Virus record (IMG/VR): IMGVR_UViG_3300006752_000035
Span: 1-54,590 of that record
Length of the DNA stretch: 54,590 nucleotides
Origin: a virus
Taxonomy: Duplodnaviria > Caudoviricetes
Reading direction: 5' to 3' (one strand)
Numbering within the stretch: position 1 is the first letter of the stretch; each line of letters begins with the position of its first letter. The translations under genes and the position numbers were made by a program. Below, piece after piece: positions 4,243 to 35,799 of the stretch. The notes beneath the pieces are model-generated. The model was not told the origin of the DNA. It saw nothing but the letters and a program-made list of their open reading frames with translations, and made no database searches.

Positions 4243-4318
4243 TCCGCGATAGCTCAGTTGGTAGAGCAAATGACTGTTAATCATTAGGTCCCTGGTTCGA
4301 GCCCAGGTCGCGGAGCCA
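4243..4318 (+). tRNA. tRNA-Asn(GTT)
   Basis: Full cloverleaf: acceptor TCCGCGA/TCGCGGA, anticodon arm AATGA-CTGTTAA-TCATT, TTCGAGC T-loop, encoded CCA. Confidence 0.97.
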
Positions 4319-4362: not shown

Positions 4363-4674
4363 ATGAAAAGACTAGCAATAGCATTAACGCTGTTAGCAAC
4401 AACAGCAAACGCAACAGCAGAAGATAGGTTCGAAGGCATCAGACAACAATGGCAGACATGTGCCGCTTGTCACGGACCACAAGGACAAGGCGGTGTTGGA
4501 CCAACACTAGCTGGACAAGATGCAGAAGCAATTATACAAAAACTTATGGCTTATAAAAGAGGCGAAACTGTTGGACCAAGATCAGTAATGATGTGGAACA
4601 CAGCAAAGTCACTAACTGACGGACAGATTGGAACTATTGGAGTTTATGTCCAAGAAGGTTTTCCAAAGCAATAA
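4363..4674 (+). CDS. Secreted mono-haem class I cytochrome c (c553/c4-like)
   Basis: Signal peptide ending ANA-TA, CAACH haem motif, GPTLAGQ, distal Met in SVMM. Confidence 0.92.
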   Translation: MKRLAIALTLLATTANATAEDRFEGIRQQWQTCAACHGPQGQGGVGPTLAGQDAEAIIQKLMAYKRGETVGPRSVMMWNTAKSLTDGQIGTIGVYVQEGFPKQ

Positions 4675-4768: not shown

Positions 4769-4844
4769 GCCCTAGTAGCTCAGTTGGCAGAGCGCGACAT
4801 TTGTAATGTCGATGTCGGCGGTTCGAATCCGTCCTGGGGCTCCA
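4769..4844 (+). tRNA. tRNA-Thr(TGT)
   Basis: Acceptor GCCCTAG/CTGGGGC, anticodon arm CGACA-TTTGTAA-TGTCG, TTCGAAT T-loop, CCA. Confidence 0.96.
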
Positions 4845-4850
4845 TTTTTT

Positions 4851-4918
4851 GGAGACCGATGCTTTGGGGCTCTGGTATGAAGGCCAATAGAGAAGTTCAA
4901 CTCTTTTCGGCTCCACCA
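4851..4918 (+). ncRNA. tRNA-like element (68 nt; intact acceptor, T-arm and CCA; aberrant D and anticodon arms)
   Basis: GGAG(A)CCG/CGGCTCC-A-CCA; T-arm AGAAG-TTCAACT-CTTTT; mini D hairpin GCT-TTGG-GGC; TGGT-ATGAAG-GCCA with a 6-nt loop. Confidence 0.6.
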
Positions 4919-4927
4919 ACTTTATGG

Positions 4928-5575: not shown

Positions 5576-5752
5576 ATGAGTGATAAAACATACTACTGCA
5601 CTACAAAAGGATTAGGATGGGCATTCTTGTGTATCGTCCTGTGCTTTACCGCCGTTCCAGTGTTGATGACACTTGCAATGGTTGGAACAGAAGACTATGC
5701 CAAGTATTGTAATATGGCAATCCACTTGCCGTGTTTCGGAATTGGAAAATAA
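5576..5752 (+). CDS. Small Cys-containing membrane protein (58 aa)
   Basis: MSDKTYYCTTKGLGWAFLCIVL...LPCFGIGK; tightly packed with neighbours. Confidence 0.6.
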   Translation: MSDKTYYCTTKGLGWAFLCIVLCFTAVPVLMTLAMVGTEDYAKYCNMAIHLPCFGIGK

Positions 5753-5755
5753 AGG

Positions 5756-5789
5756 TTGACAACTACTAAATAATAGTGTATTGTAAATA
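5756..5789 (+). promoter_or_regulatory. Promoter(s) of the leader/tRNA-Trp unit
   Basis: TTGACA(5756)-17-TATTGT(5779); late-type TAAATA at 5767 and 5784. Confidence 0.55.
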
Positions 5790-5818
5790 CACATAACAAG
5801 AACAAAAGGATTTTCAAC

Positions 5819-5878
5819 ATGATCAAGACTAATACAATTTATATTACAAATTGGCCACTGCAAAGGGGTATGTCTTGA
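5819..5878 (+). CDS. Putative attenuator leader peptide MIKTNTIYITNWPLQRGMS
   Basis: AAGGA SD at 5806-5810; single TGG at 5852-5854; 3' end overlaps the antiterminator strand. Confidence 0.65.
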   Translation: MIKTNTIYITNWPLQRGMS

Positions 5879-5914
5879 CATGACTTTTTAAAAAGTTATT
5901 TTAAGTAAGCCCCT
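5864..5914 (+). promoter_or_regulatory. Putative antiterminator hairpin
   Basis: AGGGGT(5864-69)/GCCCCT(5909-14), CTTGA/TTAAG and inner ATGACTTT/AAAGTTAT; mutually exclusive with the terminator. Confidence 0.6.
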
Positions 5915-5942
5915 AGCATTATTAGTGTTAGGGGCTTTTTTT
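5907..5942 (+). terminator. Rho-independent terminator immediately upstream of tRNA-Trp
   Basis: AAGCCCCTAGCAT-TATTA-GTGTTAGGGGCTT with a T7 tract at 5936-5942. Confidence 0.85.
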
Positions 5943-5944
5943 AT

Positions 5945-6018
5945 GGGTGTGAAGTGTTACGGTAGCACGTCAGTCTCCAAAACTGAAGGATAGAGTTCAA
6001 TTCTCTACACGCCCGCCA
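5945..6018 (+). tRNA. tRNA-Trp(CCA)
   Basis: Acceptor GGGTGTG/CACGCCC, anticodon arm TCAGT-CTCCAAA-ACTGA, T-arm TAGAG-TTCAATT-CTCTA, discriminator G, CCA. Confidence 0.93.
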
Positions 6019-6025
6019 AACAAGG

Positions 6026-6054
6026 TTGACATACCTATTGTTAGATTGTATAAT
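6026..6054 (+). promoter_or_regulatory. Sigma70-type promoter for tRNA-Arg
   Basis: Consensus TTGACA-17-TATAAT. Confidence 0.8.
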
Positions 6055-6063
6055 AAATTATAC

Positions 6064-6140
6064 GCGGCTGTAACTCAGCTGGATAGAGTACCTGGCTACG
6101 AACCAGGAAGTCAGGAGTTCGAATCTCTTCAGCCGCGCCA
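6064..6140 (+). tRNA. tRNA-Arg(ACG)
   Basis: Acceptor GCGGCTG/CAGCCGC, anticodon arm CCTGG-CTACGAA-CCAGG, TTCGAAT T-loop, CCA. Confidence 0.97.
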
Positions 6141-17265: not shown

Positions 17266-20200
17266 ATGGCAAGACAAGAAGTAGACATCGGCGTTGAAGG
17301 TAATGACGGAACCGGTGATAGCGTTCGCGAGTCGTTTCGTAAAGTCAACGAAAACTTCAGAGAGATATATGCAGTTGTAGGTAAAGGTGGACAGATTAGT
17401 TTTACCAGCCTAGCTGACACACCTGAAAGTTTAGATGAGTTTGAAGGTGGTGGAATTAAAGCATTTATTCCAGCAGTAAAGCAAGATGCTACTGGCATCA
17501 CTATACTAGAACTTGCATCAGACTCCAGCGAAGCAGAGGCAGATCAAGGAACTGTTGACACTATAGGGTTTGATGTATCAACTCCAGGTAAACTTATACT
17601 TAAAATTGCCAATGTTACAATAATTAAAGATCCAGCACCAGTACTTGGTGGACCGTTAAATGCAGCAGGACAAGTTATTGCAAACGTTGACACCAATAAC
17701 ATTACATCGTTTAACAATGTACACGGTACAGCGTTATCAATAGATGACATTGTGATTGATAAGAAGTTTGCTGACAAGGCATACATTCCACGACAGGCAC
17801 CCGGCGAAACAATTAATGTTCCGGATGAACCAACTGGTGCAACACAGTATGAATTTACATTTAGTATTTTAACAGGTGACAACAGAATCAATGTTACTGC
17901 ACATGGTCTATCTCGAGGATCTGACGGCGCACCTTACGTATTTAAAACTGAAGGTGCTGGGCTTAATTGGCAGAGAACTATATTTGATGCAGATGCAGGA
18001 CAATTTGTTACACAAAGTTCAATTGATACCGACGAAGACGGCAATCCTTTATACGATGCAATTTTAAATAACACAACAATTTATATTGGTGTTCTTGACG
18101 AAAACAACTTAGGTATGTGGTTAGCGGCAGAAGATGCACTACTAGCTGATCCTGCTGAAAGAGAAAGACTTAGACTTAAACTATCATTAATTGATTCAGT
18201 AGAATTAAAACTACTTGATGCAAACTATGATTCATCGTTAGAAGGATTCTTCCTACGTCAACAGGTTATGCCTCGTGAAAGTATTGTTAGACGCCAAGGC
18301 GATAGAATGACAGGTCCGTTAGTATTGCATGACCATCCAGGTGATCTTGCAGGTGCAGGTGCGCCAAACGGCGATGATGACTTACAAGCAGTTTCAAAAT
18401 TATATGTTGATAGTCAGTCACAAGAATCAAGTGCAAACATTTTTGTTAGTACTGTAGGTGACGATGATCAAAGAGTTGCGCCTCCAGGTAAAGAAGGTAG
18501 CTCATTAGCATATGCATATAGAACTGTAGGTGCAGCAGCAAGAAAAGCTGAAGCGGTACAAATTGCATCATCATTTGAACCAGGGCCATACTTACAGGAC
18601 ATTATTAGTTCTAGAACTATTGATCCATCTGCTCCGCCAGTGATTGAAAAATCAAGAGTACTATCCGGAGGCATCAGTGTTGGTGCTGACGGCAATAGAC
18701 TGAATACCAAAACAATTATTGATGCTAACTTAGATTTTATTATAGCAGAAACATTAGCATGGGCACAGAATCAAATTGTTACTAAGGAAACATCTAATCT
18801 TTCTGATATATCAGTAAACTGGACCGGTCGTGTTATTGACACAAAAATTGCTGAAGAAGATTTGCGCAATGGAATAAATGCAGCAACATTAGATTATCTA
18901 AGTAGTGGCTCAGCTAACTTCTTATCAAATAGAACAGCAATTGAATATTTCCAAGATGAGTACAGTAAATCACAAGCAGGTTTAGTTAGAGAAGTATACG
19001 CAACTTTACTACAGTACACATCGCAAGTTGTTGCTAGTGTTATCATAAACAGTGTAATACCATCAAATGAAAGATATCAAAATATTTACGATCAAGAAAT
19101 TATTACTTTTAATTCAGATCAACCAGGATTGGCTGATGTTGCAGCGTTAACATCTACTTCACCGATTGCAGGTACTGGTGGTACACTTCAAATACAACGT
19201 GCTATTATTGCAGGCGGCGTGTTTAGTGCTAGTGATGTACCAGCAACTGGCCAACGCTATGTTATGTTCTTCTCAAATACTGTTAGCGGCACAACTGAAC
19301 GTGGATTTGTAGATGCTGGTGATCCGCAAAACAGAGATTTAAGAGTAGGTAAAATTATTAGAGGTAAAACTTCTGGAGCATTAGGTAGAATTATATCGTA
19401 TGCTACTGGTAATGATACAATTAACAATCCAGGTTCAGGCGGTAATAAAGATAAAGTTGAATTAGAATTATTAAAACCGATAGAGTTTATTATAGGTGAA
19501 AACCTTGAATATGGTAACATTGTAAACGAACGTAATGTTACTATTAAGATCGAAACTGGTACGTATTACGAAGATTATCCAATCAGAGTTCCAACTAACG
19601 TATCACTAGTAGGTGACGAATTTAGACGAGTAATTATTAGACCAAATCGTAGAACATCTCAATCGCCGTGGGCAGGAACTTACTTCTATAGAGATAAAGA
19701 GTTTGACGGACTAACAGGTTCAGCTACTACAAGCATTACAGGAATAGCTGATGCAAACTTGCCAGTATCTGGTGAAGCATATACTAATCCGCTTACAGGC
19801 GAAGTTGACGGCTTCTTTGGTAGACACTATCTAGTTAAGCCTGGATCGCCAAAGAACGTTGATAGACAAGGGCAACTTGCATTTGTCAACCCTGGCAATT
19901 ATGTAAATGCTGCTACACTAATTGAAAAGAATAAAGAGTTTATTAAAGAAGAAACTATTGCGTTTATTGAATATCGTATTGCAAACGGTGGCTTTGTAGA
20001 CTTTAACGGAGTATTTAATCCGCAGTTTAATGTTAACGACGAAGCTAAAAGTAGATATAGAAATTATGTAGCAGATATTGTAGATGCAGTAACTAAAGAT
20101 TTACGTGAAGGCGAAAATCTCAATGTACTATCACAACAAGCTCAAATATATTTTGAAATACAAGAACGTCCAGACGAAGATGGAGTATTAGCTGGCGTAT

Positions 20201-23200
20201 TAGTTAACTTGAAACAGATGATGCAGGACATGGTCATTAACGTTGCGTGGGATGATCCATTTGCAGCTCAATATCGTGGTGCAAGTCATCCTGATCAATA
20301 CATAAATGCTCAGCTGATTGCTGAAGATGGCATAACAGGCGACTCTGGTATTTTAGATAATCAAATCTCATTAATAGATTTTGCTATTGAACCAAATGTT
20401 ACTACTGACGAAACTAATTATAACTGTGCAAAATTATCAACTGATGTTGATGTATTCTTAATGAACGATGCAACAATTTTGCGTAACATGACTGTACAAG
20501 GTCATGGTGGATTTATGTGTGTGCTTGATCCAGAAGGACAAATCCTTACTAAATCTCCATACATACAAACAGGTTCAAGTTTCTCACAGTCACTAAACAG
20601 GCAAGCATTTAGAGGTGGTATGTTTGTTGATGCGTTCTGTGCTAACACTCCGGTAAGAGTAACACAAAAAGAAAGTAACTTTAGATTAAGAATTGAAGGT
20701 GATAAAGACTCAGGACTTTATATTAGAAAGCCACAAACACCATGTCCGTTTTATATTGACGGTATTAGATATCAAGTTAATGATATTATTGAATATGACC
20801 GTGGTGGTATTAACGGCCCTGCAACTGCTACACTTGTACTAGATGTACGTTCAGGTAAAATTAATCCAAATAATTTTAGTGAGTTCTTAGGATTTGAGCC
20901 AGATCCAACTAATACTGTATTGTATCCAAATGGATATGCTGTTACACTACAAACTGCTGGTAACAGATCACAGTTAGGTAATGACTTTACACAAGTTAAC
21001 GATATGGGTTACGGTCTTGTTACTATCAACGGTGGCTTATCAGAAATGGTTAGTATGTTTACATACTATTGTCATACTGCATACTATGCAGGTAATGGTG
21101 GCCAAATACGTTCAGTATCAGGATCAAACGCAAATGGTACATATGGTTTAGTTGCAGAAGGTTCAGATCCAAACGAAGTACCTGATGATGTTAACATGGT
21201 TAATGACATGGTGCAAGGCGCACTTACATTCTCCGCATCCGTTGTTATAACACTAACTGATAATTTAGTAGTAGCATCAGGAGACACAATAACATGTACA
21301 AACAATACAGGTTCTGGTACAGCAATATTCCCTACAGAAGGTAATCAGTTATTCTTAAAAGATGTTACAGGAACATTTGCTGTTGCCGAAGATATTATTT
21401 TAAATGGTGCAACACAAACAGGCATCGAAATTGATATACTTGATACTTCAGGTTATGAAAACATAGAAGAAAAATTATCAATATTCTTTTATGATAACGA
21501 ACATGTACCTACTAACAAAGGCGAACTTGAATACTATCACGCAGATGGTGGCACACCGCTAGGTAGGATTGCACGATATGAATTAGCAAGTGTTGAAATT
21601 GTTGACGGACTTACTGTTGATGGTTATGCTATTGACTTTTCAGACTTAGGCACAGCTGGTTCACCAACTGCAACGGGCTCTGCTTCTTATGTAACTCGTA
21701 ACACTGCTGATGGAGAAACAGATCCACTGACTGCTGTTACCCAAGCAAAAGTAACTATTACTAAAGCTAGAGAACAAGGCGGAATTTATAAAGTAGGCAT
21801 ATTTGCTTCTGAGGATGGCGAACACTATAAAGTTGGCGATACTATGGTAATCAAAGGATCGAAACTAGGTGGCAGCGACGGCACACACGATGCAACAGTT
21901 ACAGTTACATCGATCAATCAGCAACGATTTGCAGATGATAACTTAAATGACAATATTGATACAGGTAGTATTAGAACTTTAAGTATTACAGGTACTATTA
22001 ATGTAATTGCTGATTATACACCATTACGCAGCGGACAAGTTTATAAGGCTAACTTTAGTACAGCAAATGATACATTTGACAATGACGGTATATTACAAGA
22101 TATTCCAAATGGTCAACCTATAAACATTAGACAAAATAATACACATACATTTGGTGAGATTGAAAGTACTGGTGACTTAACTATACGACCAAGTACAGCA
22201 ATTAACTTTAACGAAGATTTAGAATATACATATAGATCAATTAGCTTTGGCTCTAATGACCCAGTCGGTAACCAGTTAGACATAGACGAGTCATTAGTTG
22301 GCTTTGATGCAAGTTACGACTTTGTAAGATTAAACGTAGCAAAAGAAAGAATTAACCTTACAGCAGCAGACTTTGATGCAGCGCAGTTAGCCGTACCGAT
22401 TGGTGCAGGCACAACTATTGGTAACACAACTGGTGATACTACAATTGCTGTTAACAAATTAAGTGAAATTAGAGATATATGGAGAATTAATAATAACTTC
22501 TTAACCGACGGAAACTTTAGACCAGGTGGATTAACTGACGGATTTAGAACATTCGATTTTACTGGTGAACTTCCAAAAATTATAATGTGGAATGGTAAGA
22601 AGCATTATGTGTACAACTATAGAGAAATAGTTGAAAACGATCAAGGAACTGCATTCAATGATAAAAGAAAAATATATGACGAGAATCATTTATTTGCATT
22701 AGTTGATCTAAAAGAAATTACCGAAGTAGAATTAAACTTTGATGAGATTAACGTAAATGGATCTGATGTTCCTTTAACAACTACATTCCCAAGAGTAGTA
22801 GATTATGCAGGCGGCATTTCAGAAGCAAGAATACGTCAAAGTAACAATAAAACTGCTTGGGGACAGGTTAAAATTGCAGGTGATAAAGCACAAGAGATTA
22901 AACTTTATGAGTGGAGTGGCGTTGACTTTAACACCACTGGCTTCTTAGAAGTTTGGGAAGGTGGAGCAGCAGACCCAGATCCAGCAACAGGTTCTTGGAC
23001 ACAGATGCTAGACCAAAATGGTGATCCTATAATACCACGCAGTGTACAGCGCAATAGAGAAACCAATATTACAAGTCAAGCAGTAGGTCTTGTAAGACCA
23101 TTAACACAAACATTCTCAGGAACTATTACATTACGTGCAGGTCTACAAGATGGATCAGCGGGAACTATTACAATTGATATTTCAACATGTAGAGCTACAT

Positions 23201-26200
23201 CACATGACTTCCTTGATATTGGTACAGGATCATTTAACAGTAGTAACTATCCAAATGTTATTTTAGGTTTCCCAGCAGCACAACCATTGCAGGAAAATGA
23301 AGTACAAGAACGTAACAAAGGTAGAGTGTTTTATGTAAGTACAGACCAAGACGGTTTCTTCCGTGTAGGTAGATTCTTTACAGTTGACCAAGGTACAGGT
23401 ACAGTTACATTTGCGGCAAGTATTGCATTGTCAGATGTTGATGGTATTGGATTTAAACGTGGTGTTGTTGTAACAGAATTTAGTACAGATAGTGCTATGA
23501 GTGATAATGCTGACGACACTGTTCCAGTTGAATCAGCAGTACGAGGTTATGTAAATAGACGTTTGGGTTATGACCAAGCAGGTAACACAGTTCCAAATCC
23601 ATTAGGACCATCAGTACTAACACAAAATGGTGCTGTTCCTATGTTGGGCAATTTGAAAATGAATGGTAACACCATTGAAAACATTGCACCAGTTGACATT
23701 AACAGTACTCCTGGAACTACAGCAGTTAACAGAGACTACGTTGATTTACAAACTCAAGAATATGCAACAGCAACAGGACTTAGAGATGTGCAAAATACTG
23801 GAGCATCTGGAAATGAGTTCTTAGGATTTACAAATACTAAAATAGTTTATATCTCAGCTGAAGTAGGTGAAGTTGGTGCTAATGCATCATTTGCAATTGG
23901 TGAATATTTAACAGACAGCACTGGATCTCAAAACTTTGGTAAAATTGTAGGCAACTATTCTAAGTTAGATATTTCAATAGGCAATGTTCTAGTAGTAACT
24001 TATGAAACTGGTCCAGATCTTTATGACGAAGTTAAGCCAGGTGAAGCACCAACATTAATATATGATGGCGATGCAACACTTGATGTAAACGGCAATGTAA
24101 CAGGTATTAGTACAGGTGTTAGTAGAAATAGTTTTGTTGTAGCAGGTCCATATCCTGAAATAATTAATATTTCACAGGAACCATTTGCTGCTGGCTTACC
24201 AGTAAGTGATATTACACTAACAACCCGTAGATTAGAAAATGACGATGATGATACTAACACAGTATTAGATGTTCCAACAGCATACTTTGATATGCAAATT
24301 AATCCAGAAGTAATAATAGATGCTGATGTTAATGCAGCAGCTGATATTCAACAGTCTAAATTATACTTACAAGAAGCAAATAACTACGCAACTGTACTTA
24401 CAAGTATAACAGAAGAAAATGCTATTGACGTAGTAGAAGGTTATGAGTACATAATTACTGATTTAGGAAGCACTACTAATGCAAACTGGAACATCATAGC
24501 AGGCACAACTAGCGTCACTTATACAATTGGTTCAGTATTTACAGCAGACGAACATGGTGTTGCTGGATCGGGTAAAGTAAAACGAACTTTGTCTGTTACA
24601 CCAACTCCAGTTAATTCTGAATCAAGACAAAATAACCAAGCAACATTAGGATTGTCAGCATTTGATATAGCACACTTTAAAGTAACTAGAGGTTATGTAG
24701 AATTAAAAGACAACGGTATTACTTTAGATAAAATTAAGAAAATTGGTATTGATACTGTACTAGGTAATTCTTCAGCTAGTACAGCTAATGTAGCAGAAGT
24801 AACATTTAATACAGTAGTTAACGAAGGTGGCGGTTTACTACACACAGACTTTAACTCTGTTGACGTTAATGGTGATGTAGCATCGCCAGCTGATTATACT
24901 ACCCAAGGTATTTTCCAAAGAAACGGTTCTGAATCTTATAAGATTGTTCCGTTTACAACACAGGGTGCTAAGAATTCATTAGTAAAAACTGATGTAAATA
25001 ACGGCATAACAGCAGACTCTTATAAAATTGGAACTGGTACTACACCAACAGTGCTTACAACAACTACAGCTGACGGGTTAAAACTTACTAACATACAAGA
25101 CGGTGTTATATTAACAGCAGCTGGCGGCATGTCAGACGATGGATTTGGACCTGATGTTAAAATACCAGGTAACGTAAACATTGGTAGAATGGGAGATCCA
25201 GTTGTCATTGCAGTTACAGCATTAGTAGTAGGTACTAGGTATGAAATTACTGATACAGGTACTACTACTTGGAATGATTGTGTTGCAACAGCTGATGAAA
25301 GAGCTAACAACGCTGCATGGAAAGTTGGCGATACTTTTGTAGCAGACGCAACAACTACAGGAACTGGTAAAGTACAGGTAGCTGATAGTTTTACTCGAAG
25401 CATATTACAAGTTGCTTCGGTTACAGCATCAACTAGCCCATATGTAGCAGCTGACTGGATGTATGCTTCGTTTATCGAATCACCAAGAGAAAAAGGATTA
25501 GCAAGTACAGGTATATCACTTGGATACGGTTCAGGTCAAAGTACCACAGGCGGCATTGCTTTTGTTGTTGCTGACGGTGATAACGATACTATAAAGATTC
25601 CGTTTACCTTTAATGTTACTGGCATGACGCCAGACACAACTAGTGCTTACGATTTAGGCGCTCCGTCTTTAACATATAAAACACTTTATATTGATGACGT
25701 TGTTATAACTAATAGTTTACAAACAGGCGATGGCACTACCGTAACCGATAACAGTGGTGCAGTAGATCAATTATATTATGTTAACGCTAAAGGTAGTACT
25801 AACTGGAATGTAAAAGTTGGTATTCCGACAGCAAATGTTGAGTCAGGCGACTTAGTTAGAGTTATAAGCACAGGCGGCAACGGTTCGGGTACGCTTACTT
25901 CATACAAAATAATACATGATTACGAAACAGGTGACATGTGGAATGAAGGTGATGCACTTGTAGGTGGCAATGTAATTGCAAACAACTATCTTAACAGAGG
26001 TTCAGATGGAACAAACACTGTTGGTACTGCAACTAAAAAGTTCGAAGCAATGTATGCTACTACATTCCATGGTACAGCAACACAAGCTCAGTATGCTGAC
26101 TTGGCAGAAAATTACTTAGGCGATGCGGCTCATGAGCCAGGCACAGTATTAGTATTTGGCGGTGAACATGAAGTTACTGTTACTAATTCTAAAGGCGATC

Positions 26201-26472
26201 ATAGAGTTGCAGGCATTGTATCAACTAATCCAGCACACTTAATGAATAGTGCATTAGAAGGTGACCATGTAGTTGCAGTTGCATTACAAGGTAGAGTTCC
26301 TTGTAAAGTAATTGGTAAAGTAGAAAAAGGTGATATGCTAGTAACTAGTGCAATACCAGGTTATGCTATGGTAGATAATAATCCAGGCGTAGGTAGAGTA
26401 TTAGGTAAAGCAGTTAGCACCAAAGACAGTGCCGAACACGGCATTGTTGAAGTAGTCGTAGGAAGAGTCTAA
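17266..26472 (+). CDS. Giant tail fibre/spike: gp9/gp10-type N-terminus, pectin-lyase-like segments, C-terminal intramolecular-chaperone (peptidase G2-like) domain
   Basis: IGVEGNDGTGDSVRESFRKVNENF; GDRMTGPL..AVSKLYVD; GTYYEDYPIRVP.NVSLVGDEFRR; YADLAENY...VALQGRVPCKV. Confidence 0.85.
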   Translation: MARQEVDIGVEGNDGTGDSVRESFRKVNENFREIYAVVGKGGQISFTSLADTPESLDEFEGGGIKAFIPAVKQDATGITILELASDSSEAEADQGTVDTIGFDVSTPGKLILKIANVTIIKDPAPVLGGPLNAAGQVIANVDTNNITSFNNVHGTALSIDDIVIDKKFADKAYIPRQAPGETINVPDEPTGATQYEFTFSILTGDNRINVTAHGLSRGSDGAPYVFKTEGAGLNWQRTIFDADAGQFVTQSSIDTDEDGNPLYDAILNNTTIYIGVLDENNLGMWLAAEDALLADPAERERLRLKLSLIDSVELKLLDANYDSSLEGFFLRQQVMPRESIVRRQGDRMTGPLVLHDHPGDLAGAGAPNGDDDLQAVSKLYVDSQSQESSANIFVSTVGDDDQRVAPPGKEGSSLAYAYRTVGAAARKAEAVQIASSFEPGPYLQDIISSRTIDPSAPPVIEKSRVLSGGISVGADGNRLNTKTIIDANLDFIIAETLAWAQNQIVTKETSNLSDISVNWTGRVIDTKIAEEDLRNGINAATLDYLSSGSANFLSNRTAIEYFQDEYSKSQAGLVREVYATLLQYTSQVVASVIINSVIPSNERYQNIYDQEIITFNSDQPGLADVAALTSTSPIAGTGGTLQIQRAIIAGGVFSASDVPATGQRYVMFFSNTVSGTTERGFVDAGDPQNRDLRVGKIIRGKTSGALGRIISYATGNDTINNPGSGGNKDKVELELLKPIEFIIGENLEYGNIVNERNVTIKIETGTYYEDYPIRVPTNVSLVGDEFRRVIIRPNRRTSQSPWAGTYFYRDKEFDGLTGSATTSITGIADANLPVSGEAYTNPLTGEVDGFFGRHYLVKPGSPKNVDRQGQLAFVNPGNYVNAATLIEKNKEFIKEETIAFIEYRIANGGFVDFNGVFNPQFNVNDEAKSRYRNYVADIVDAVTKDLREGENLNVLSQQAQIYFEIQERPDEDGVLAGVLVNLKQMMQDMVINVAWDDPFAAQYRGASHPDQYINAQLIAEDGITGDSGILDNQISLIDFAIEPNVTTDETNYNCAKLSTDVDVFLMNDATILRNMTVQGHGGFMCVLDPEGQILTKSPYIQTGSSFSQSLNRQAFRGGMFVDAFCANTPVRVTQKESNFRLRIEGDKDSGLYIRKPQTPCPFYIDGIRYQVNDIIEYDRGGINGPATATLVLDVRSGKINPNNFSEFLGFEPDPTNTVLYPNGYAVTLQTAGNRSQLGNDFTQVNDMGYGLVTINGGLSEMVSMFTYYCHTAYYAGNGGQIRSVSGSNANGTYGLVAEGSDPNEVPDDVNMVNDMVQGALTFSASVVITLTDNLVVASGDTITCTNNTGSGTAIFPTEGNQLFLKDVTGTFAVAEDIILNGATQTGIEIDILDTSGYENIEEKLSIFFYDNEHVPTNKGELEYYHADGGTPLGRIARYELASVEIVDGLTVDGYAIDFSDLGTAGSPTATGSASYVTRNTADGETDPLTAVTQAKVTITKAREQGGIYKVGIFASEDGEHYKVGDTMVIKGSKLGGSDGTHDATVTVTSINQQRFADDNLNDNIDTGSIRTLSITGTINVIADYTPLRSGQVYKANFSTANDTFDNDGILQDIPNGQPINIRQNNTHTFGEIESTGDLTIRPSTAINFNEDLEYTYRSISFGSNDPVGNQLDIDESLVGFDASYDFVRLNVAKERINLTAADFDAAQLAVPIGAGTTIGNTTGDTTIAVNKLSEIRDIWRINNNFLTDGNFRPGGLTDGFRTFDFTGELPKIIMWNGKKHYVYNYREIVENDQGTAFNDKRKIYDENHLFALVDLKEITEVELNFDEINVNGSDVPLTTTFPRVVDYAGGISEARIRQSNNKTAWGQVKIAGDKAQEIKLYEWSGVDFNTTGFLEVWEGGAADPDPATGSWTQMLDQNGDPIIPRSVQRNRETNITSQAVGLVRPLTQTFSGTITLRAGLQDGSAGTITIDISTCRATSHDFLDIGTGSFNSSNYPNVILGFPAAQPLQENEVQERNKGRVFYVSTDQDGFFRVGRFFTVDQGTGTVTFAASIALSDVDGIGFKRGVVVTEFSTDSAMSDNADDTVPVESAVRGYVNRRLGYDQAGNTVPNPLGPSVLTQNGAVPMLGNLKMNGNTIENIAPVDINSTPGTTAVNRDYVDLQTQEYATATGLRDVQNTGASGNEFLGFTNTKIVYISAEVGEVGANASFAIGEYLTDSTGSQNFGKIVGNYSKLDISIGNVLVVTYETGPDLYDEVKPGEAPTLIYDGDATLDVNGNVTGISTGVSRNSFVVAGPYPEIINISQEPFAAGLPVSDITLTTRRLENDDDDTNTVLDVPTAYFDMQINPEVIIDADVNAAADIQQSKLYLQEANNYATVLTSITEENAIDVVEGYEYIITDLGSTTNANWNIIAGTTSVTYTIGSVFTADEHGVAGSGKVKRTLSVTPTPVNSESRQNNQATLGLSAFDIAHFKVTRGYVELKDNGITLDKIKKIGIDTVLGNSSASTANVAEVTFNTVVNEGGGLLHTDFNSVDVNGDVASPADYTTQGIFQRNGSESYKIVPFTTQGAKNSLVKTDVNNGITADSYKIGTGTTPTVLTTTTADGLKLTNIQDGVILTAAGGMSDDGFGPDVKIPGNVNIGRMGDPVVIAVTALVVGTRYEITDTGTTTWNDCVATADERANNAAWKVGDTFVADATTTGTGKVQVADSFTRSILQVASVTASTSPYVAADWMYASFIESPREKGLASTGISLGYGSGQSTTGGIAFVVADGDNDTIKIPFTFNVTGMTPDTTSAYDLGAPSLTYKTLYIDDVVITNSLQTGDGTTVTDNSGAVDQLYYVNAKGSTNWNVKVGIPTANVESGDLVRVISTGGNGSGTLTSYKIIHDYETGDMWNEGDALVGGNVIANNYLNRGSDGTNTVGTATKKFEAMYATTFHGTATQAQYADLAENYLGDAAHEPGTVLVFGGEHEVTVTNSKGDHRVAGIVSTNPAHLMNSALEGDHVVAVALQGRVPCKVIGKVEKGDMLVTSAIPGYAMVDNNPGVGRVLGKAVSTKDSAEHGIVEVVVGRV

Positions 26473-29600: not shown

Positions 29601-30028
29601 ATTTTAAATTTAGATTGGCACAAGCTAAAGTAAACGATTTACTTGGTAGAGCTAATTTTAGCACACTACAAACTGCAAATCCAAATTCACAAGGACTAGT
29701 TTATAGAGTTGTTACAACAGAGTACGTTTATAATGGCACAGCCGACATTATAGGCGAAGGAACACAACAGCCAGGAGGACCATTTATAGTAACATTAAAT
29801 GATATATCTGGACTTTCGGTAGGTACAATTATTAGACTGAACAATCACGGAACAACACCGCCCAATGCTACACAGGACGGTGAGATAACTGCAATAAATA
29901 CTATTAACAAGACTATAAGTATTGACTTTGGTAACACTTTTGGTGATATCGTAGAAGTTGCAGAAGGTGCTACCGGAACAGTACTAATACAAAATAATTT
30001 TGTAGTCGTCAAAGGGAAAATTAACTAA
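26630..30028 (+). CDS. Tail fibre with repeats and C-terminal right-handed beta-helix (pectin-lyase-like)
   Basis: YDDL..KP.IP and GQVLTT.G.G repeats; IRFNTDTSAFEG; beta-helix pattern VSIKNLRLDGN...; TAAATA at 26603. Confidence 0.8.
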   Translation: MANRYPIIVDTTNGNQFRELPEGDNLLLTGSNIVNALNISVIGTVEAQKIVIQGVEFTGEYDDLLNKPVIPSSILELGVLDGAVGQVLTTNGSGIISFQNIPAQDPVLGGALSGTAGNATINNNTITVNELDVVEGTSGQVLATDGNGNLQFITMTGGSGGTGGASNFLQLLGTIGLGQIQDDFLTPAKLKDNSQTPTAGQYLTVDTNGDFEYLDLPEGGAVSYDDLTDKPIIPTTLLGLGIADGNDGDYLTTNGDGTFAFSELNQIASINFTGTTISSVSDNTNVTINPKGTGYLTIQGNNALVIPVGDVSQRGTIPQGGIRFNTDTSAFEGFDGTYWGSLGGVKDADQDTYITTEESAGSDEDTFKFFTGGQQSATLSNTLLDIAQGVDVKINSTQTALDFDSGALSVDGGVSIRGNLLVSGSIDVDQTFDTSAIVNTSTLADTLTNVVTINANDMSYFKANQYVRLFNASPSELDENDQPSIPLDQLTNNLSLSVQSVGFGDPASGDEVVFDYRIAQMDMDNGKISEATISAIVEVPSAALLNFNNNNNIQLTVSRQSANHAIIVYRKVAAEVQHKIVYVLGPKELQASLSNIQWTDYYDFDRVDWAGKDFTNAFTDTSGIVHLPLTPPANPVFGWHDSRITSINLDDNQIVLDDSFVSSSATSTIVIDDTVNVQTQITQAKAQNRNSVELENRTYYIKQLIIPTDFTFYGQGDQTQLIKTPWSMNRFTASNSMLVLDEDNYTTFKNVSIKNLRLDGNFVNQFLASDIVNNYLNYAIHIYGKDILFENLEIENVIGGGIYSYDSSITEDLTVLNCEITNGTLSYVHEEYGPVYFDETRNVKIAHNTFRSFPGAVSIGAVSKGIVSPNVVDNCGSGIFAYGASKIILTPNIILGAASEFIQNPDVLNSEYDQVNIQIEQNVDYNSTQYVYQENGQFFDFTANQGRLTLFINELIKTNNVEELSTDYSNDIVGNPYGEFIQSDADLAVGNFKFRLAQAKVNDLLGRANFSTLQTANPNSQGLVYRVVTTEYVYNGTADIIGEGTQQPGGPFIVTLNDISGLSVGTIIRLNNHGTTPPNATQDGEITAINTINKTISIDFGNTFGDIVEVAEGATGTVLIQNNFVVVKGKIN

Positions 30029-33000
30029 TGTCTAGCTTGAACAATATAAACAATAACGCATCAGTAGTAAACGTAGGTCGAACAACACCAGTTACTCCAG
30101 GAGCACAACCTGCTGCTAAGAGTATTCCAGTTGTTGTTGCAACAGACCAAACAGCTATTCCTGTTGTAGAACAAAATAAAATACAATCAGAAGTTGCACT
30201 ATCATTACTTGGTATACCAAGGTCAGAAGTTGCACTAGGTATATTTGCTGACGTTAACACATACGATGTTAACCCAACAGAATGGTCCACAGAGCCAGCA
30301 GAGTATAGTGAGCTTTCACCTACACTTCCGCAATATACAGGTATAGGCGGAACGTTAGGTTGGGGTATTAAACACTTACCTGAGGAATCAGGTGCAATGG
30401 TTACTGCTCCACCAGATGAAACTGCTATCCTAACTTCTAAACGTTTTTTCCGTTATCAGCCAGGACGTGTTTCCGCTGCTACATTTGGTATTAAAAGTTC
30501 AAGCTACCAAGGTGAAGTATTAGGAACTGAACAACGTCCGCAAGTACGTAACCCAGGTGTAAACAAGTACGGTATTTTTGATAAGTTTGATGGTTACTAT
30601 TGGGAAACAAGCGACACAGGCCAAGGCGATCAATTCCGTGTTGTAAGACGTACACAGTCTATTATTAGAGTTAACCCACTTCCGTTTGGTAACCAAGCAG
30701 GTGAGCAGTTAGAAGATCATGCACTAGGTGGCAAGCCGCCAGCACAAGAAGCAAGTGATTACAACCAGTTTCCAACTGCTACAAAGTATTTGAATGAAAA
30801 TAGATTTGATCTTATTGCAAAGTCTGTTATACAAAACGAAGCAGTTAAATGTCATAGAGATGTTGGTTACTTCCTTGACGGTGCAGCATTTGACATTACA
30901 CTAGGAACAAATTATAACGCAGTATTCCAAGGTTTAGCAGAAGCAAACTCAAATGAGTATCAAGATGATAACACACTTCCAGTAGAAGTTACTACTGCAA
31001 TAACTAACACAAGAACAGAAGTAAAAGGACTTGACGATGTTAACACTGTTGGCGATGCAGCAGTTGATGTTTACTTTGATAAAATAGAAGCAATATGTGT
31101 TGATGCAGGTACAAAAGTAGACTATAGTTCAGCAACACAAACAGAACAAATAAACTTCTTAAAAGGTATTACATACACTAACCCAACTAGTGGCGCAACA
31201 GCAGGACAGATTGCAGCTAAAGATGCAATACTTGCTAACTTAGACTTCTTAACAGAAGAAGTAAACGTTTTCATTAATAACTATTATTCGTCGCACACAG
31301 GACAAATTGAAGCAAAGTGTGAAAGAGATGTATTGTTTGCTGTACAAGCAGTTGCATATGATATTTTATACGGCGGCAACAGTGCTACACATGATGCGGC
31401 ACGTTTCTTCTTTTACGATGGATTTGGAAAAAGTGATCAAACATTAGCAGTAACAGATCAAACAGTTTTAGCATACAAGCACTTGAAAGGTGTAATTGAC
31501 GATGTTATACTAGGACAAGCATATGCTCCGCAAGCACGTTGTACAAGAGATTTAGAATATATCCTAGAAGGTGTTGGATACGACATGACACTAGGCACAA
31601 ACTACCATGCTACATTCTTAGGACTAGCAGAGTCTAACAGTTCTGAATATCCAGAAGACAGTTCAGCAACAGTTAGTTCAGCAGACGGAAATGTTACAGC
31701 ACCGTGGGCTAGAGTTGTTGGTGCAATTAATGAAACAGAAACACAAGCAAAGCAACTAGTAGCACTTTCTGGAGGTAACGATCCAGCAGCAATTGCAGCA
31801 ATTGATACGTTCTATGATAATTTAAGAGCAATATCAGTTAATAACAACACAAGAGTTGAATACTATTCAACAACACAGCAAAAGCAAATTAATTTCTTAA
31901 AAGGTATTACATTTACAAATCCAACAAGTGGACGTACAGCAAGTCAACTAGCCGCTAAAGATAAGATTCAAGCAAACTACGACTTCTTAGCAGCAGAAAT
32001 TAATGCATGGGTAGCACAAGAGTATCCAAACTCAAAACACCCAGTTGCAAAATGTACACGTGACGTATTATTCATAGCAAACGCAGTTGCACATGATATG
32101 TGTTACGGTGGTAACTTTGCTACTGTAGAAGCAACAGAGTTCTTCTTCTACGAAGACTTTGCTCAAACATCAGACATACATAAAAATCAAACAGTTGCAG
32201 CATACGAAAGACTAGTAGAAATTATTGGTGATATTGTTGAAGGTACTGCAATTACACGCTCATTTGGTAATACCGAAGTACAAGTTACTTCAGGAACAGA
32301 TGCAGATATAGCAGAAGGAGCAGCAGTAGAAGCTCTTGTACAAATTGTTGTAGATGCTATTGATGCAGATAATGACACAGGCTTACCAGCAGTTGTTAAC
32401 CCAGATACGTCATGGGCGGATTCAGGATTAACAACTGCTAAGGGTTCAATTGATAGTGGCGCAAACGGCTTGGCGACAGCTGCAAGTACTAATGCATATG
32501 CTGGCTATACACAAAACAGTGAATCACAAAATACATCAAACACTGCTACTATTGCTGAAGCTAAAAAAGCAACAGACTTAATGGCAATCATACTAGGTGT
32601 TATCAAAGAAGGCGACATTATTAAGAGTTTGCCAGGTAACAGAGATGTACCAGACAGAAGCTGGAGAGGCGCAGGCGACTTAACTACGGCTGCTGATGCA
32701 ATTATAGAAGCAAAGCAAACAATACTTGACACAGTTGCTCCGATTACGTTATCTAGCACAGACGATGTTAAATGTTTGCGTGACTTAGAATTTGCAATAG
32801 ATGCATACATAGATGATTTAAGATGGGGCGGCAACGCACACACAATTACTAATGCTACTACATACCAGACTGCTGTACTTGCAGACGCAGAACGTGAAGG
32901 TGAAACACATTACTATTTCCGTTATGTACTAAGAGACGCTTTATATAAAATTGACGAGCAAGAAGCTAGAGATAAACTAGCAGAATTAGCAGGATATCAT

Positions 33001-35799
33001 ATACAAGCAACAACAGCAAATGGTACTCCAGGAAGTAAGTATCCTCCACAAGCAGGGCCAGACGGTACTACAGGTGCTATAACACAAGCACAGGTTGCAG
33101 CAGCAACTTACGGGCAGAAAGCTAAAATTGATACAATCTTTAGTGTATATAATAAGTATATGGGCTACTTAATTAGTCAAAGTTTAGTATATGATGCAGC
33201 AGACTATGTAAATGCAGAAAAAGGATTTTCATATGCAGATGCACAAGCATACGAAGATATTCTTAAGTTTAAGTGTTTACGTGATGTTAAGTATGTTGTA
33301 AATGGTTATGCTAGTGATTTACAGTACGGTGGTAATGCAGCAACAACTTACAATGCTAAAAAATATTACTCCGATGGAGAAATTAAAGTTTATTCACAAA
33401 CTAATGATAGTGGCGTAGTTGCAGAAGTTGACAGACACAAATACTTATTATGGTTGTTAACAGGACAGCAACCAGGTACAGTATTTTCTGGTAGTAATCC
33501 AACATTTACATTAGCTAACTATACGGACGTATGTACACTCTTTGGATTAAGCGATACACAGAAAACAAGAATTACAGACCTAGCAAAAATTATTGTTAAT
33601 AACTTTACAACTGAGTACACTGGCGCAGTAGAATTTGGCAGCGCAGGACAGTTTGGTGATTTAGTTATTTTACGTGACGGATTAATAATGGTTCACGGAG
33701 CAGTATATGATCCATCATTATTGAAGAAAAAGGTTAAGGCTGTCGCAAAACTAGATGTAGATAATAATGCTATTGCGTATGCAGGAGAAGCAGTTATTAT
33801 AGGTTCTTACGTAAACTACTATGGCGATTGCCCAGACTTAATTGATGGTAAGACATACTTTGTTGCAAATGTAACAGGACCTAAGGGAACTGTAATACAA
33901 TTAAGAGATCCAACAGTAGCAGGATTTAACGAGTTTGATGTTAATCCTGATGATGATGTTATTGATATTACAGCAACCGGCGATGGACCGCATTACATTG
34001 AAACTCCAGTTCCATTCATTGTACCAAAAGAATACGAAGATGTTGACCCGGCTTGGCCATTAGGTACTAGACGTTATGACGGTATGTTCCCATACTTGTA
34101 TACTGATACAGGAACATTGCCTGCAGATGCTAACTCTGTTACAGCAGGATTTATTGATACTGCTATTGATACAGTATCAGATCCGTCTAATCTAAGAACA
34201 CAAATTGACGCTATCAACTTTAAATATAAAACATGGTGTCGTGATAATGTAGATCCAACGTACTATTCAGTATACGAATACAGAGTAGGTAGAACACGTT
34301 TTAGTGGCGATGCTCTAGACGGATTGACACGTACAGCAGTTTACTCAGATAATGTACTTGACAAACGTGCAGGTTCTGTATTTAGAAACGGTGATGTAGC
34401 AGCAGAACAAACATCAGTTTGGGACTTTGACTTTAGTAAGGTTACCATGCTTAAAGTTGAATTTAGTTGGTATGGTGCTGTTGGTGCATTGTTCTTAGCA
34501 TATGTTCCAGTAGCTAACGGAGATGCACGTTGGGTAAGAGTACACCATTTACGTTGTTCAAATCAGTTGAAGATATCTTCATTAGGTAATGCTACACTTC
34601 CAATTACATATCTAGTATATGGTGGCGGAAGTGAAAATAGATTTGGAACTCCAAATGCAAACAGACTTGCTAACCCATACGGTGGCTATTCAGAGTTCCT
34701 TGTTAAGTATGGTGCTTCTTACTATATTGACGGTGGTGATAGAGGTACAGTAAGATTGTTTAATCATAGTTCAGATACACCAACTGACGTATACGGTTCA
34801 AAATATAGACTAGGTGTTGATAGTGCTAATGCTACTGATCCAGTATCACCTTACATTACAATTACAAACCTTGATCCAGACACTACAGGTAATGCATCAC
34901 CAGAAATAAGCACTTTTTATGTAGGCGCACAAATTATTACTGGTAACTCGCAAGACCAAAATGTTAAAGTTATTTGGATAGATCAAGCAACTAGCAAACT
35001 ATATTTAAATAAGCCAATTAGCCAAGTTAATGCACTCAGCATTATTGTTAATAGACCAGCATTAATATACGGATTAAAAACTAAAGACAACATTGTATCA
35101 GGTGATGGCGATGATGTACGTAACCGTGTACAGGTATATCCAACACGTTTAAGTGTCGGATCATCAGGTTCTGTAAATGCTAAACTAACATTATTAAAAA
35201 CACCAATATTCCAACCTAGTGTTCAAACAGTTGGAACAATAAGTGTTACAGCAGAATCAGATATAAATGTTAGCTATCAACTTCCAATAGACAATATAAC
35301 GTACTTAAAAGAAAACGGTAACTTTGTATATGGATGGTTCTTAGCAAGTCTTAATGGCAGTGAAACATTATTTAATGTGTTAGGTAGACTAGAAAAAGAA
35401 AATGACGCATATCATTTTTATCCAACAGAAATATATAACGGTACTTTGGTTATTGCTAGTGGCGCAACATTCTTAAAAGATGGAGTGTTTGATCCACAAG
35501 GTAATACACTACTTCCAAATGAAACTACATTTGAAAAAGAACGTTTAAGTTCTGTAGAAGTAGCACTTACATCACAAACACCAATTCCAGGAACTGGTAT
35601 ATCGTTAGCAAGTTACTATATTGCACCAGGTGCAGAAGAATTTGATTTAGCAACATATTTTGATTATAATAAGGAGTATATAAGTTATCCACTTACAGAC
35701 GAGATTGCAACGCTTTGGTTAGCAACATACAGTAGCCAAACAAATACTGCAAGTGAACAGGTTTCGTTAAGTGCCAGCTTTACATGGGAGGAGCAATAA
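30028..35799 (+). CDS. Large virion protein with six (K/R)CxRD helical repeats; paralog of 35803..39258
   Basis: Shares LLGIPR.EV, SK..RYQPGR, KVTM.K.EF.WYGA.GA and KYGAS.YIDGGD with the next gene. Confidence 0.8.
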   Translation: MSSLNNINNNASVVNVGRTTPVTPGAQPAAKSIPVVVATDQTAIPVVEQNKIQSEVALSLLGIPRSEVALGIFADVNTYDVNPTEWSTEPAEYSELSPTLPQYTGIGGTLGWGIKHLPEESGAMVTAPPDETAILTSKRFFRYQPGRVSAATFGIKSSSYQGEVLGTEQRPQVRNPGVNKYGIFDKFDGYYWETSDTGQGDQFRVVRRTQSIIRVNPLPFGNQAGEQLEDHALGGKPPAQEASDYNQFPTATKYLNENRFDLIAKSVIQNEAVKCHRDVGYFLDGAAFDITLGTNYNAVFQGLAEANSNEYQDDNTLPVEVTTAITNTRTEVKGLDDVNTVGDAAVDVYFDKIEAICVDAGTKVDYSSATQTEQINFLKGITYTNPTSGATAGQIAAKDAILANLDFLTEEVNVFINNYYSSHTGQIEAKCERDVLFAVQAVAYDILYGGNSATHDAARFFFYDGFGKSDQTLAVTDQTVLAYKHLKGVIDDVILGQAYAPQARCTRDLEYILEGVGYDMTLGTNYHATFLGLAESNSSEYPEDSSATVSSADGNVTAPWARVVGAINETETQAKQLVALSGGNDPAAIAAIDTFYDNLRAISVNNNTRVEYYSTTQQKQINFLKGITFTNPTSGRTASQLAAKDKIQANYDFLAAEINAWVAQEYPNSKHPVAKCTRDVLFIANAVAHDMCYGGNFATVEATEFFFYEDFAQTSDIHKNQTVAAYERLVEIIGDIVEGTAITRSFGNTEVQVTSGTDADIAEGAAVEALVQIVVDAIDADNDTGLPAVVNPDTSWADSGLTTAKGSIDSGANGLATAASTNAYAGYTQNSESQNTSNTATIAEAKKATDLMAIILGVIKEGDIIKSLPGNRDVPDRSWRGAGDLTTAADAIIEAKQTILDTVAPITLSSTDDVKCLRDLEFAIDAYIDDLRWGGNAHTITNATTYQTAVLADAEREGETHYYFRYVLRDALYKIDEQEARDKLAELAGYHIQATTANGTPGSKYPPQAGPDGTTGAITQAQVAAATYGQKAKIDTIFSVYNKYMGYLISQSLVYDAADYVNAEKGFSYADAQAYEDILKFKCLRDVKYVVNGYASDLQYGGNAATTYNAKKYYSDGEIKVYSQTNDSGVVAEVDRHKYLLWLLTGQQPGTVFSGSNPTFTLANYTDVCTLFGLSDTQKTRITDLAKIIVNNFTTEYTGAVEFGSAGQFGDLVILRDGLIMVHGAVYDPSLLKKKVKAVAKLDVDNNAIAYAGEAVIIGSYVNYYGDCPDLIDGKTYFVANVTGPKGTVIQLRDPTVAGFNEFDVNPDDDVIDITATGDGPHYIETPVPFIVPKEYEDVDPAWPLGTRRYDGMFPYLYTDTGTLPADANSVTAGFIDTAIDTVSDPSNLRTQIDAINFKYKTWCRDNVDPTYYSVYEYRVGRTRFSGDALDGLTRTAVYSDNVLDKRAGSVFRNGDVAAEQTSVWDFDFSKVTMLKVEFSWYGAVGALFLAYVPVANGDARWVRVHHLRCSNQLKISSLGNATLPITYLVYGGGSENRFGTPNANRLANPYGGYSEFLVKYGASYYIDGGDRGTVRLFNHSSDTPTDVYGSKYRLGVDSANATDPVSPYITITNLDPDTTGNASPEISTFYVGAQIITGNSQDQNVKVIWIDQATSKLYLNKPISQVNALSIIVNRPALIYGLKTKDNIVSGDGDDVRNRVQVYPTRLSVGSSGSVNAKLTLLKTPIFQPSVQTVGTISVTAESDINVSYQLPIDNITYLKENGNFVYGWFLASLNGSETLFNVLGRLEKENDAYHFYPTEIYNGTLVIASGATFLKDGVFDPQGNTLLPNETTFEKERLSSVEVALTSQTPIPGTGISLASYYIAPGAEEFDLATYFDYNKEYISYPLTDEIATLWLATYSSQTNTASEQVSLSASFTWEEQ

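Follow-up and report, generated by a model that had tools for sequence, protein, structure and literature searches.

What purpose might be served by a short translated reading frame and a strong transcription terminator placed immediately in front of a phage transfer RNA (tRNA) gene? The question arises from a 54.6-kb fragment of DNA (54,590 nt, the whole of which is referred to below as the window) from the uncultured-virus record IMGVR_UViG_3300006752_000035, rated as ∼15% complete, where an element of only ∼190 nt sits between a small open reading frame (ORF) ending at position 5752 and a gene for tRNA-Trp(CCA). DNA runs belonging to at least 12 studies of seawater and marine metagenomes contain most of the locus, and the phage is therefore a marine one. 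The contigs of four metatranscriptome runs include none that covers 5752-5927. Phage tRNAs are usually viewed as constitutive helpers in codon usage or as decoys against tRNA-targeting defences. The analysis presented here suggests instead that the element is probably a ribosome-mediated transcription attenuator of the trpL type, controlling a phage tRNA unit led by tRNA-Trp, with the cognate tRNA itself as the regulated product. With an attenuator whose control codon matches its tRNA, some phages would in effect gauge the speed of decoding and provide tRNAs as needed, and classical attenuation would extend from amino-acid supply to tRNA supply.

Organization of the Leader Unit

On the + strand a sigma-70-type promoter (5756-5784; TTGACA at 5756-5761 and TATTGT at 5779-5784, separated by 17 nt, 10/12 matches to consensus) is followed by a Shine-Dalgarno sequence, AAGGA (5806-5810), 8 nt 5′ of the ATG, and by a leader ORF of 19 codons plus TGA (5819-5878; MIKTNTIYITNWPLQRGMS) whose sole TGG, the putative control codon, is codon 12 (5852-5854). 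Next comes an intrinsic terminator (5907-5942) consisting of a stem (5907-5937) with 14 pairs, 6 of them G-C, a 3-nt loop and a run of seven T residues that ends at 5942, 2 nt before the tRNA-Trp gene (5945-6018, + strand; called by ARAGORN and scoring 57.8 bits on the Rfam tRNA model). Among the 8 terminator-like sites detected over the first 12 kb of the window, the hairpin 5907-5937 is much the strongest. An initial annotation of the sequence had reported the promoter, Shine-Dalgarno sequence, 19-codon leader with its one TGG, terminator and tRNA-Trp(CCA), in each case with correct coordinates.

Several segments of the leader RNA, all on the + strand, are important for what follows. A helix that we call P0, conserved in the relatives described below and missed by the initial annotation, joins the start codon and codons 2-4 (5′ strand 5818-5829) to nucleotides 5872-5882 in the minimum free energy (MFE) fold. 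Region 2 (5864-5882, AGGGGU...CUUGA), the 5′ strand of an antiterminator, holds both the stop codon and the 3′ strand of P0, and region 3 (5901-5914), the antiterminator 3′ strand, overlaps the 5′ arm of the terminator, the 3′ arm of which is region 4. An inner hairpin at 5880-5899 (5-bp core, 5883-5887:5892-5896) is kept in both states. The leader RNA as a whole (5790-5945) folds at -39.5 kcal/mol, as compared to -24.5 ± 3.9 kcal/mol for shuffled sequences (z -3.86; 0/200), and the free fold has four parts, namely P0, a small UGGCC/GGGG hairpin, the inner hairpin (5883-5896) and the terminator. For an RNA that begins 12 nt beyond the first base of TGG and lacks the terminator 3′ arm, ViennaRNA returns exactly the mutually exclusive antiterminator that had been proposed (pairs 5864-5869:5909-5914 and 5874-5878:5901-5905 around the inner hairpin 5880-5899), at -20.0 kcal/mol, an energy reached by 1/200 shuffles.

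This organization suggests the following cycle. Host RNA polymerase would start at the 5756 promoter and, with the RNA still growing, a ribosome would engage the 19-codon leader. A ribosome reaching the stop codon would cover region 2, region 3 would be free for region 4, the terminator would form and the transcript would end 2 nt short of tRNA-Trp. A ribosome held with TGG or a codon just upstream in the A site, as might be expected when Trp-tRNA is scarce, would not cover region 2, which could then pair with region 3 in a hairpin of ∼-20 kcal/mol before region 4 is transcribed; the terminator would be blocked, polymerase would continue into tRNA-Trp and the tRNA would be freed by RNase P. 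An increased amount of phage tRNA-Trp would in turn speed TGG decoding and switch the unit off, corresponding to negative feedback on decoding capacity. P0 most likely captures region 2 after the ribosome leaves, or if it never arrives, and would favour termination.

Relatives of the Leader and Conservation of Its Reading Frame

Conventional similarity searches provide little. Neither the locus nor the leader alone has a homologue by blastn among 50,697 phage records, only tRNA-Arg-like pieces being returned; a 58-nt match in a Felixounavirus (E 0.01) was rejected as chance, as it is intergenic, on the other strand and has no tRNA nearby. Searches by tblastn with two window proteins gave only distant matches (26-36% identity, in SPO1-like, PA5oct-like and phiM12-like phages), and the downstream ORF recovered one contig, 99% identical, that begins inside the hairpin. 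Relatives were obtained from pattern scans of a viral contig collection, with tRNA-Trp core patterns (∼120 loci), with a junction pattern that added further loci, and with a 15-nt motif from the leader alone that involves no selection for a tRNA. The resulting family has 98 loci and 63 distinct sequences; loci L205 and L236, which share only the 15-mer, inside coding DNA, and have no promoter, family terminator or tRNA, were dropped. A 23-nt leader motif located at least 118 stretches in metagenomes (108 usable, 84 distinct and 57 new, among the matches listed) and had 0 matches in one genome each of 185,579 bacterial and archaeal species.

Loss of the leader ORF or of its Trp codon in homologues had been set beforehand as an outcome that would count against attenuation, and both are conserved. 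With an ORF finder that imposed no TGG requirement, the leader ORF is kept in 63/63 distinct viral-contig members and contains an in-frame TGG in every one (57 with one, 5 with two and 1 with three); among the metagenome matches listed the ORF is kept and TGG is in frame in 84/84 distinct leaders. For comparison, TGG makes up 1.08% of the 13,315 codons in the long ORFs of the window. In the 63 viral-contig members TGG is codon 10-13 and lies 9-19 nt 5′ of the GGGG of region 2, and in the alignment the T and G of the control codon are invariant columns while the surrounding codons vary freely. In the peptide, conservation is confined to Trp and to the parts encoded by paired RNA (codons 1-4 and the final 3-4 codons), and the middle is variable.

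The position of the stop codon is kept as well. The 63 distinct leaders end in TGA (40), TAA (16) or TAG (7), at an offset of +11/+12 from the start of region 2 in 61 and at -2 in the other 2, where the frame is shifted and a new TAG stands immediately 5′ of GGGG (L058 and L087). In three further loci (L265, L333 and L327) region 2 has gained or lost one G, the frame is shifted, TGG is kept and the stop falls 5-16 nt later, and in all frameshifted variants the stop remains within or adjoining region 2. The start codon and region 2, each anchored by the RNA structure, are 43, 46, 49, 52 or 55 nt apart in 113/120 sequences, and indels therefore come in whole codons. A promoter-like site is found at the same position in 109/117 distinct members with at least 90 nt of upstream sequence, and a purine-rich AGGA or GGAA occupies the Shine-Dalgarno position in relatives. 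Conservation in more than 100 distinct homologous loci thus rules out a chance arrangement. In one locus, L343, the T run after the hairpin is degenerate.

tRNA-Trp and the Operon Behind It

The first gene after the terminator is tRNA-Trp in every member whose contig reaches it. The scan with the leader-only 15-mer first fetched 50 loci with a terminator, in 49 of which ARAGORN places tRNA-Trp first; in the 50th (L203) a Trp-type gene with a mismatched anticodon stem is seen by eye. In the metagenome set tRNA-Trp comes first in 82/84 and the contig ends in the other 2, among the matches listed. Because a search with the leader alone yields tRNA-Trp, the link is not an artefact of the search. 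Conversely, in the first 120 loci a terminator lies directly upstream of 19/119 tRNA-Trp genes and of 2/774 other tRNA genes; the latter two, a tRNA-Gly (L071) and a tRNA-Pro (L114), follow another tRNA and have no leader ORF. Two very different types of tRNA-Trp gene, of 74 nt and of 84-88 nt, occur behind the same leader. In L147, L160, L200, L234 and others the leader is followed first by the larger type, which has a long variable region; against the Rfam tRNA model the L160 copy reaches only 41.5 bits, and the L234 copy is not called at gathering.

In most relatives the element stands at the head of an operon that comprises up to six tRNA genes, the first of which is always tRNA-Trp. The additional tRNAs (Gln-Cys, Pro-Cys, Pro-Ser-Cys, Cys-Ile(UAU), Ile(UAU)-Pro, Gly or Tyr-Cys; up to five more genes) lie 0-12 nt 3′ of tRNA-Trp, leaving no space for a promoter. 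The initial annotation had argued that control is specific for Trp. This holds in the window, where tRNA-Trp stands alone and the tRNA-Arg gene that follows has its own promoter (6026-6054, a perfect 12/12 match to consensus), but not in those relatives in which the element heads an operon.

The gap between the T run and the tRNA is below 30 nt in 52/63 distinct viral-contig members, and 11 carry an insert of 72-96 nt. Such inserts (L018, L027, L082, L085, L108, L061/L096, L164, L177, L184, L198, L199, L207, L218, L222, L234) fold as a long hairpin (ACTACACTA...TAGTGTAG) that ends in a short T run, possibly representing a second terminator or else a mobile hairpin of small size; L234, L018 and L061 gave no match to an Rfam family at gathering.

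Two other arrangements of tRNA-Trp were encountered. In L003 an unrelated leader of 37 codons with one TGG is followed by a GGAGGG/CCCUCC antiterminator (-20.4 kcal/mol), a terminator (-20.1 kcal/mol) and tRNA-Trp, and this locus is an independent analogue of the leader/antiterminator/terminator/tRNA-Trp arrangement. It remains a singleton, as a scan for the L003-type pattern gave 15 stretches, 14 of which are chance matches in coding DNA. A different group of phages (L004-L006, L010, L015, L023, L032, L033, L037, L041, L046 and similar) has a related tRNA-Trp without leader or terminator that abuts, with no spacer, a conserved coding-like sequence (...EEYIDYCHGK...); in this group the tRNA gene appears to lie within an ORF or to be joined to its end.

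Compensatory Changes in the Competing Folds

The terminator, the antiterminator and the helix between the start codon and the stop region are each backed by compensatory changes. Pairs were counted over an alignment of 62 sequences (A2; L027, which contains an N, was excluded). For the terminator state, comprising P0, the inner hairpin and the terminator, 91.4% of cells are paired, as compared to 26-57% when the partners are slid, with 34 cells in which both sides have changed (8.6 ± 2.4 expected from shuffling, 0/500). For the antiterminator state the corresponding values are 88.3% and 37-59%, with 16 double-change cells (6.9 ± 1.9, 0/500) and a covariation score that is matched by 6/500 shuffles, so that the search for covarying antiterminator pairs that had been suggested in the initial annotation does find them. 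The terminator stem is paired in 97.6% of cells over the 62 sequences, with 4 pairs changed on both sides, and the 5-bp core of the inner hairpin in 89.9%; in L087 and L058 the inner hairpin is replaced by a different self-complementary sequence. In P0 even the start codon takes part, its A or G covarying with a U or C partner (A-U in 46 sequences, G-C in 16), and at the base of the antiterminator one lineage has changed AGGGGU to GAGGGC together with GCCCCU to GCCCUC.

A comparison that requires no alignment, in which each strand is paired with its own partner or with partners swapped between sequences, gives -13.0 against -10.2 ± 0.24 kcal/mol for P0 (0/300) and -11.37 against -11.15 ± 0.07 kcal/mol for the antiterminator base (0/300).

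Predicted folds were obtained for two positions of the ribosome. When RNA is folded from 12 nt beyond the first base of TGG to the terminator loop, with region 4 absent, so as to mimic a ribosome at the Trp codon, the antiterminator engages the terminator 5′ arm in 63/63 members at a mean of -20.6 kcal/mol. For a ribosome placed at the stop codon, the mean for what is left of the RNA is -1.0 kcal/mol. The terminators of the family average -18.6 kcal/mol.

Leader Codons and the tRNAs of the Operon

The initial annotation had raised the possibility that the leader codons change with the identity of the tRNA. TGG itself does not, as it always precedes tRNA-Trp; codons upstream of it appear to. 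Over 54 distinct leader/operon pairs there are 153 cognate matches between leader codons and operon tRNAs, as compared to 98.6 ± 7.2 when pairs are permuted (0/20,000), and 117.9 ± 5.8 when permutation is restricted to within three leader clades (0/20,000). A further 46 new pairs from metagenomes, among the matches listed, give 119 as compared to 90.7 ± 5.5 (0/10,000), or 105.5 ± 3.6 within clades (2/10,000). Loci with little downstream sequence are excluded from these tests (below 300 nt for the set of 54 pairs, below 400 nt for the metagenome and codon-position tests). The signal resides in codons 5 to W-1, where W is the Trp codon (z 9.3; 7.2 within clades), the zone in which stalling of the ribosome would not cover region 2. 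Codons 2-4, which take part in P0, show no signal, and codons beyond W only a weak one (z 3.5; 2.7 within clades).

Counts for individual tRNA types, taken over all 100 pairs (the 54 and the 46, the latter among the matches listed), are clearest for Ile, with at least two ATA codons in 14/14 leaders whose operon has an Ile(UAU) or CAU-anticodon tRNA and in 6/86 of those without. At least two Gln codons are found in 13/14 leaders with tRNA-Gln and 16/86 without, and at least one Cys codon in 61/61 with tRNA-Cys and 31/39 without. We consider the tracking of operon tRNAs by upstream codons for Cys, Ile (ATA), Gln, Ser, Tyr and Gly to be a strong lead, not yet an established result.

These codon counts raise the possibility, which we offer tentatively and hold at slightly less than an even balance, that the leader is a programmable, multi-channel meter of decoding capacity in which codons 5-12 carry codons read by the phage's own operon tRNAs. 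Trp would be the constant channel and Cys, Ile (AUA), Gln, Ser, Tyr and Gly would be added as the operon changes, with upstream codons echoing the operon tRNAs in the manner of multi-amino-acid leaders, and the tRNAs would be made only when the host supply of exactly those species fails. Decay of host tRNA after infection, tRNA-cleaving defence nucleases and a mismatch in codon usage are possible triggers.

The leader of the window is itself rich in Thr (ACT, ACA, ACA) and Asn (AAT, AAT) codons (5819-5851), and genes for tRNA-Thr(UGU) and tRNA-Asn(GUU) lie 1.1-1.7 kb upstream of it, outside the attenuated unit. This may be without meaning, as a KTNT motif is found family-wide and is partly tied to P0.

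Weighing the Proposed Attenuator against Its Alternatives

A number of observations weigh against the proposed attenuation and must be set beside the evidence described above. Most leaders have a single Trp codon, as compared to two in E. coli trpL. Covariation lends no support to the small UGGCC:GGGG hairpin, own partners giving -7.08 and swapped partners -7.30 kcal/mol, with 299/300 swaps at least as good. For the complete leader with a ribosome at the Trp site the equilibrium favours the terminator in 61/63 members, by a mean of 6.7 kcal/mol; the antiterminator must therefore form first and the switch, if it operates as proposed, must be kinetic, a dependence that is usual for attenuators. 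Although P0, a candidate for the competing helix of the 1:2 type, is conserved and covarying, in the absence of a ribosome and before region 4 is made the MFE fold is already the antiterminator in 54/63, so that termination on an untranslated leader would have to rest on kinetics as well, with P0 presumably forming first. With respect to the codon echo, at least two Pro codons are found in 27/46 leaders with tRNA-Pro and in 34/54 without, which is no association; an Ile-type tRNA is missing from the operon in 6/20 ATA-rich leaders; and Cys and Pro codons occur also in the leaders of Trp-only units. Phylogenetically independent pairs number 1-7 per trait and give significance for no trait, while pooled they run in the same direction in ∼8 cases and in the opposite direction in ∼1.

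The folding of the free leader bears as well on what we regard as the best of the alternatives, although an unlikely one, that the leader is a general sensor of the progress of translation. Any slowing of the pioneer ribosome would then give read-through, whether by host shut-off, ribosome-targeting toxins or antibiotics, EF-P-dependent pausing at Pro-Pro or global loss of tRNA, with TGG just one slow codon. The geometry indeed predicts read-through for a stall at any codon from ∼5 to 12, the antiterminator is the MFE fold without a ribosome in the 54 members noted above, W-P-P is common in leaders, and one report links EF-P to the coupling of ribosome and terminator (PMC5021804). A general sensor does not, however, predict that leader codons follow the tRNA content of the operon, and it sits poorly with a TGG that is invariant while its neighbours vary freely, with tRNA-Trp as the invariable first gene, and with leaders of the window, L063 and L075 types, which contain no Pro-Pro.

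Somewhat less probable still is that the promoter, leader and terminator form a gene in their own right, producing an RNA of ∼150 nt or a 19-residue peptide in the manner of rnTrpL/peTrpL, with the tRNAs made by constitutive leak through the terminator. The transcription unit is complete, and attenuator-derived RNAs and leader peptides that act in trans are reported in two sources (PMC6614838, 10.1101/606483). Yet the peptide is conserved only at RNA-pairing codons and Trp, a gap between T run and tRNA below 30 nt in 52/63 members is too short for a promoter, and a plain terminator has no need of a mutually exclusive antiterminator with compensatory changes. A function in trans could accompany attenuation.

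Phages commonly use antitermination, and one can imagine a phage or host protein, either a timed antitermination factor or an RNA-binding protein, that overcomes the terminator, the leader ORF being incidental. We find this very improbable, as it leaves unexplained the conserved frame, stop position and TGG, indels in multiples of 3, the covariation of the start codon in P0 and the codon echo.

Finally, tRNA-Trp might be transcribed from a promoter-like sequence at 5875-5902 (TTGACA, 16 nt, TATTTT; 10/12, with a start near 5909), which would reduce the hairpin to a 5′ processing or stability element. We regard this as the least likely of the alternatives, and a remote one. The TTGAC forms part of the stop codon and of the strands paired in P0 and the antiterminator; where it varies, to TTAAC or CTAGTG, the opposite strand has changed to match and no -35 box is retained. 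Loci L016, L058, L087 and L239, with the structure intact, have no -10-like TATTTT, and a transcript from 5909 would still hold nearly the whole terminator.

Comparison with Known Attenuators

The attenuator proposed here works like a trp leader and, if the codon echo is real, like the multi-amino-acid leaders, and it is not a member of those families. In common with E. coli trpL it has a short translated leader with a Trp control codon, four RNA segments that form exclusive antiterminator and terminator folds, a stop codon in the antiterminator strand and a 1:2-like helix that may compete with the antiterminator. It differs from trpL in that tRNA-Trp and other tRNAs are regulated rather than Trp biosynthetic enzymes, and the loop would close on decoding capacity; in that there is mostly one Trp codon; in that the 1:2-like helix uses the start codon; and in that the element is phage-borne, with no sequence or Rfam relationship to trpL. 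The thr, ilvGMEDA and ilvBN leaders of enterobacteria each use one terminator to integrate control codons for several amino acids. Unlike these, the phage leader has a codon set that appears to change with tRNA gene content, an association that is statistical. Membership in the amino-acid biosynthetic leader families was rejected, the downstream genes being tRNAs and no Rfam model matching at gathering; in the Rfam scan the best leader family was Thr_leader, with 22.2 bits against a threshold of 55, and Trp_leader was not listed.

Components of decoding are also regulated by the supply of cognate charged tRNA in the attenuation of pheST, with its pheM leader, and by the T-boxes of synthetase genes; in both cases the targets are synthetases and not tRNA genes. 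T-boxes act without a ribosome, by direct binding of uncharged tRNA, and for the phage leader there is no Rfam match to a T-box even at E values up to 10. The tRNA clusters of large phages such as T4, T5, KVP40 and others are among the early genes and are transcribed by host polymerase from consensus promoters. The tRNA-Trp and tRNA-Arg units of the window likewise stand behind computed consensus promoters. No description of a codon-sensing leader for such clusters was found in the full-text literature that is searchable. The initial annotation knew of no attenuator of a phage tRNA gene, and our searches agree, no leader-peptide attenuation of tRNA genes, phage or cellular, being found in full-text sources, where coverage of subscription journals is thin and an older description is possible.

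The element would represent a compact, portable and re-programmable sensor for the availability of individual tRNA species, and it yields testable predictions as to when host tRNA pools fail during marine infection. Should the multi-channel reading be correct, these would be the first tRNA genes under codon-specific feedback and a natural example of sensor codons that co-evolve with cargo genes. Because the element is short and would operate with host polymerase and ribosomes, it is directly testable in a laboratory bacterium.

Other Features of the Window

ARAGORN identifies four tRNA genes in the window, tRNA-Asn(GUU) (4243-4318), tRNA-Thr(UGU) (4769-4844), tRNA-Trp and tRNA-Arg (6064-6140). 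Just 3′ of tRNA-Thr the stretch 4845-4925 has a T-arm-like sequence, GTTCAACTC, and a 3′ end, CGGCTCCACCA, with ends able to pair; it has the look of a degenerate or atypical tRNA-like element and is called as a tRNA by neither ARAGORN nor a permissive Rfam scan. Among the tRNA genes lies an ORF (4363-4674) with a signal-peptide-like start, a CAACH haem-binding motif and a match to Pfam Cytochrom_C (27.8 bits, cut-off 21.3), and this would be an unusual auxiliary gene in such surroundings. Further downstream are very large + strand ORFs (3068, 1132, 1923, 1151, 964 and 1129 aa, at 17266-26472, 30028-35799 and neighbours), one of which matches virion-structural and baseplate PHROGs.

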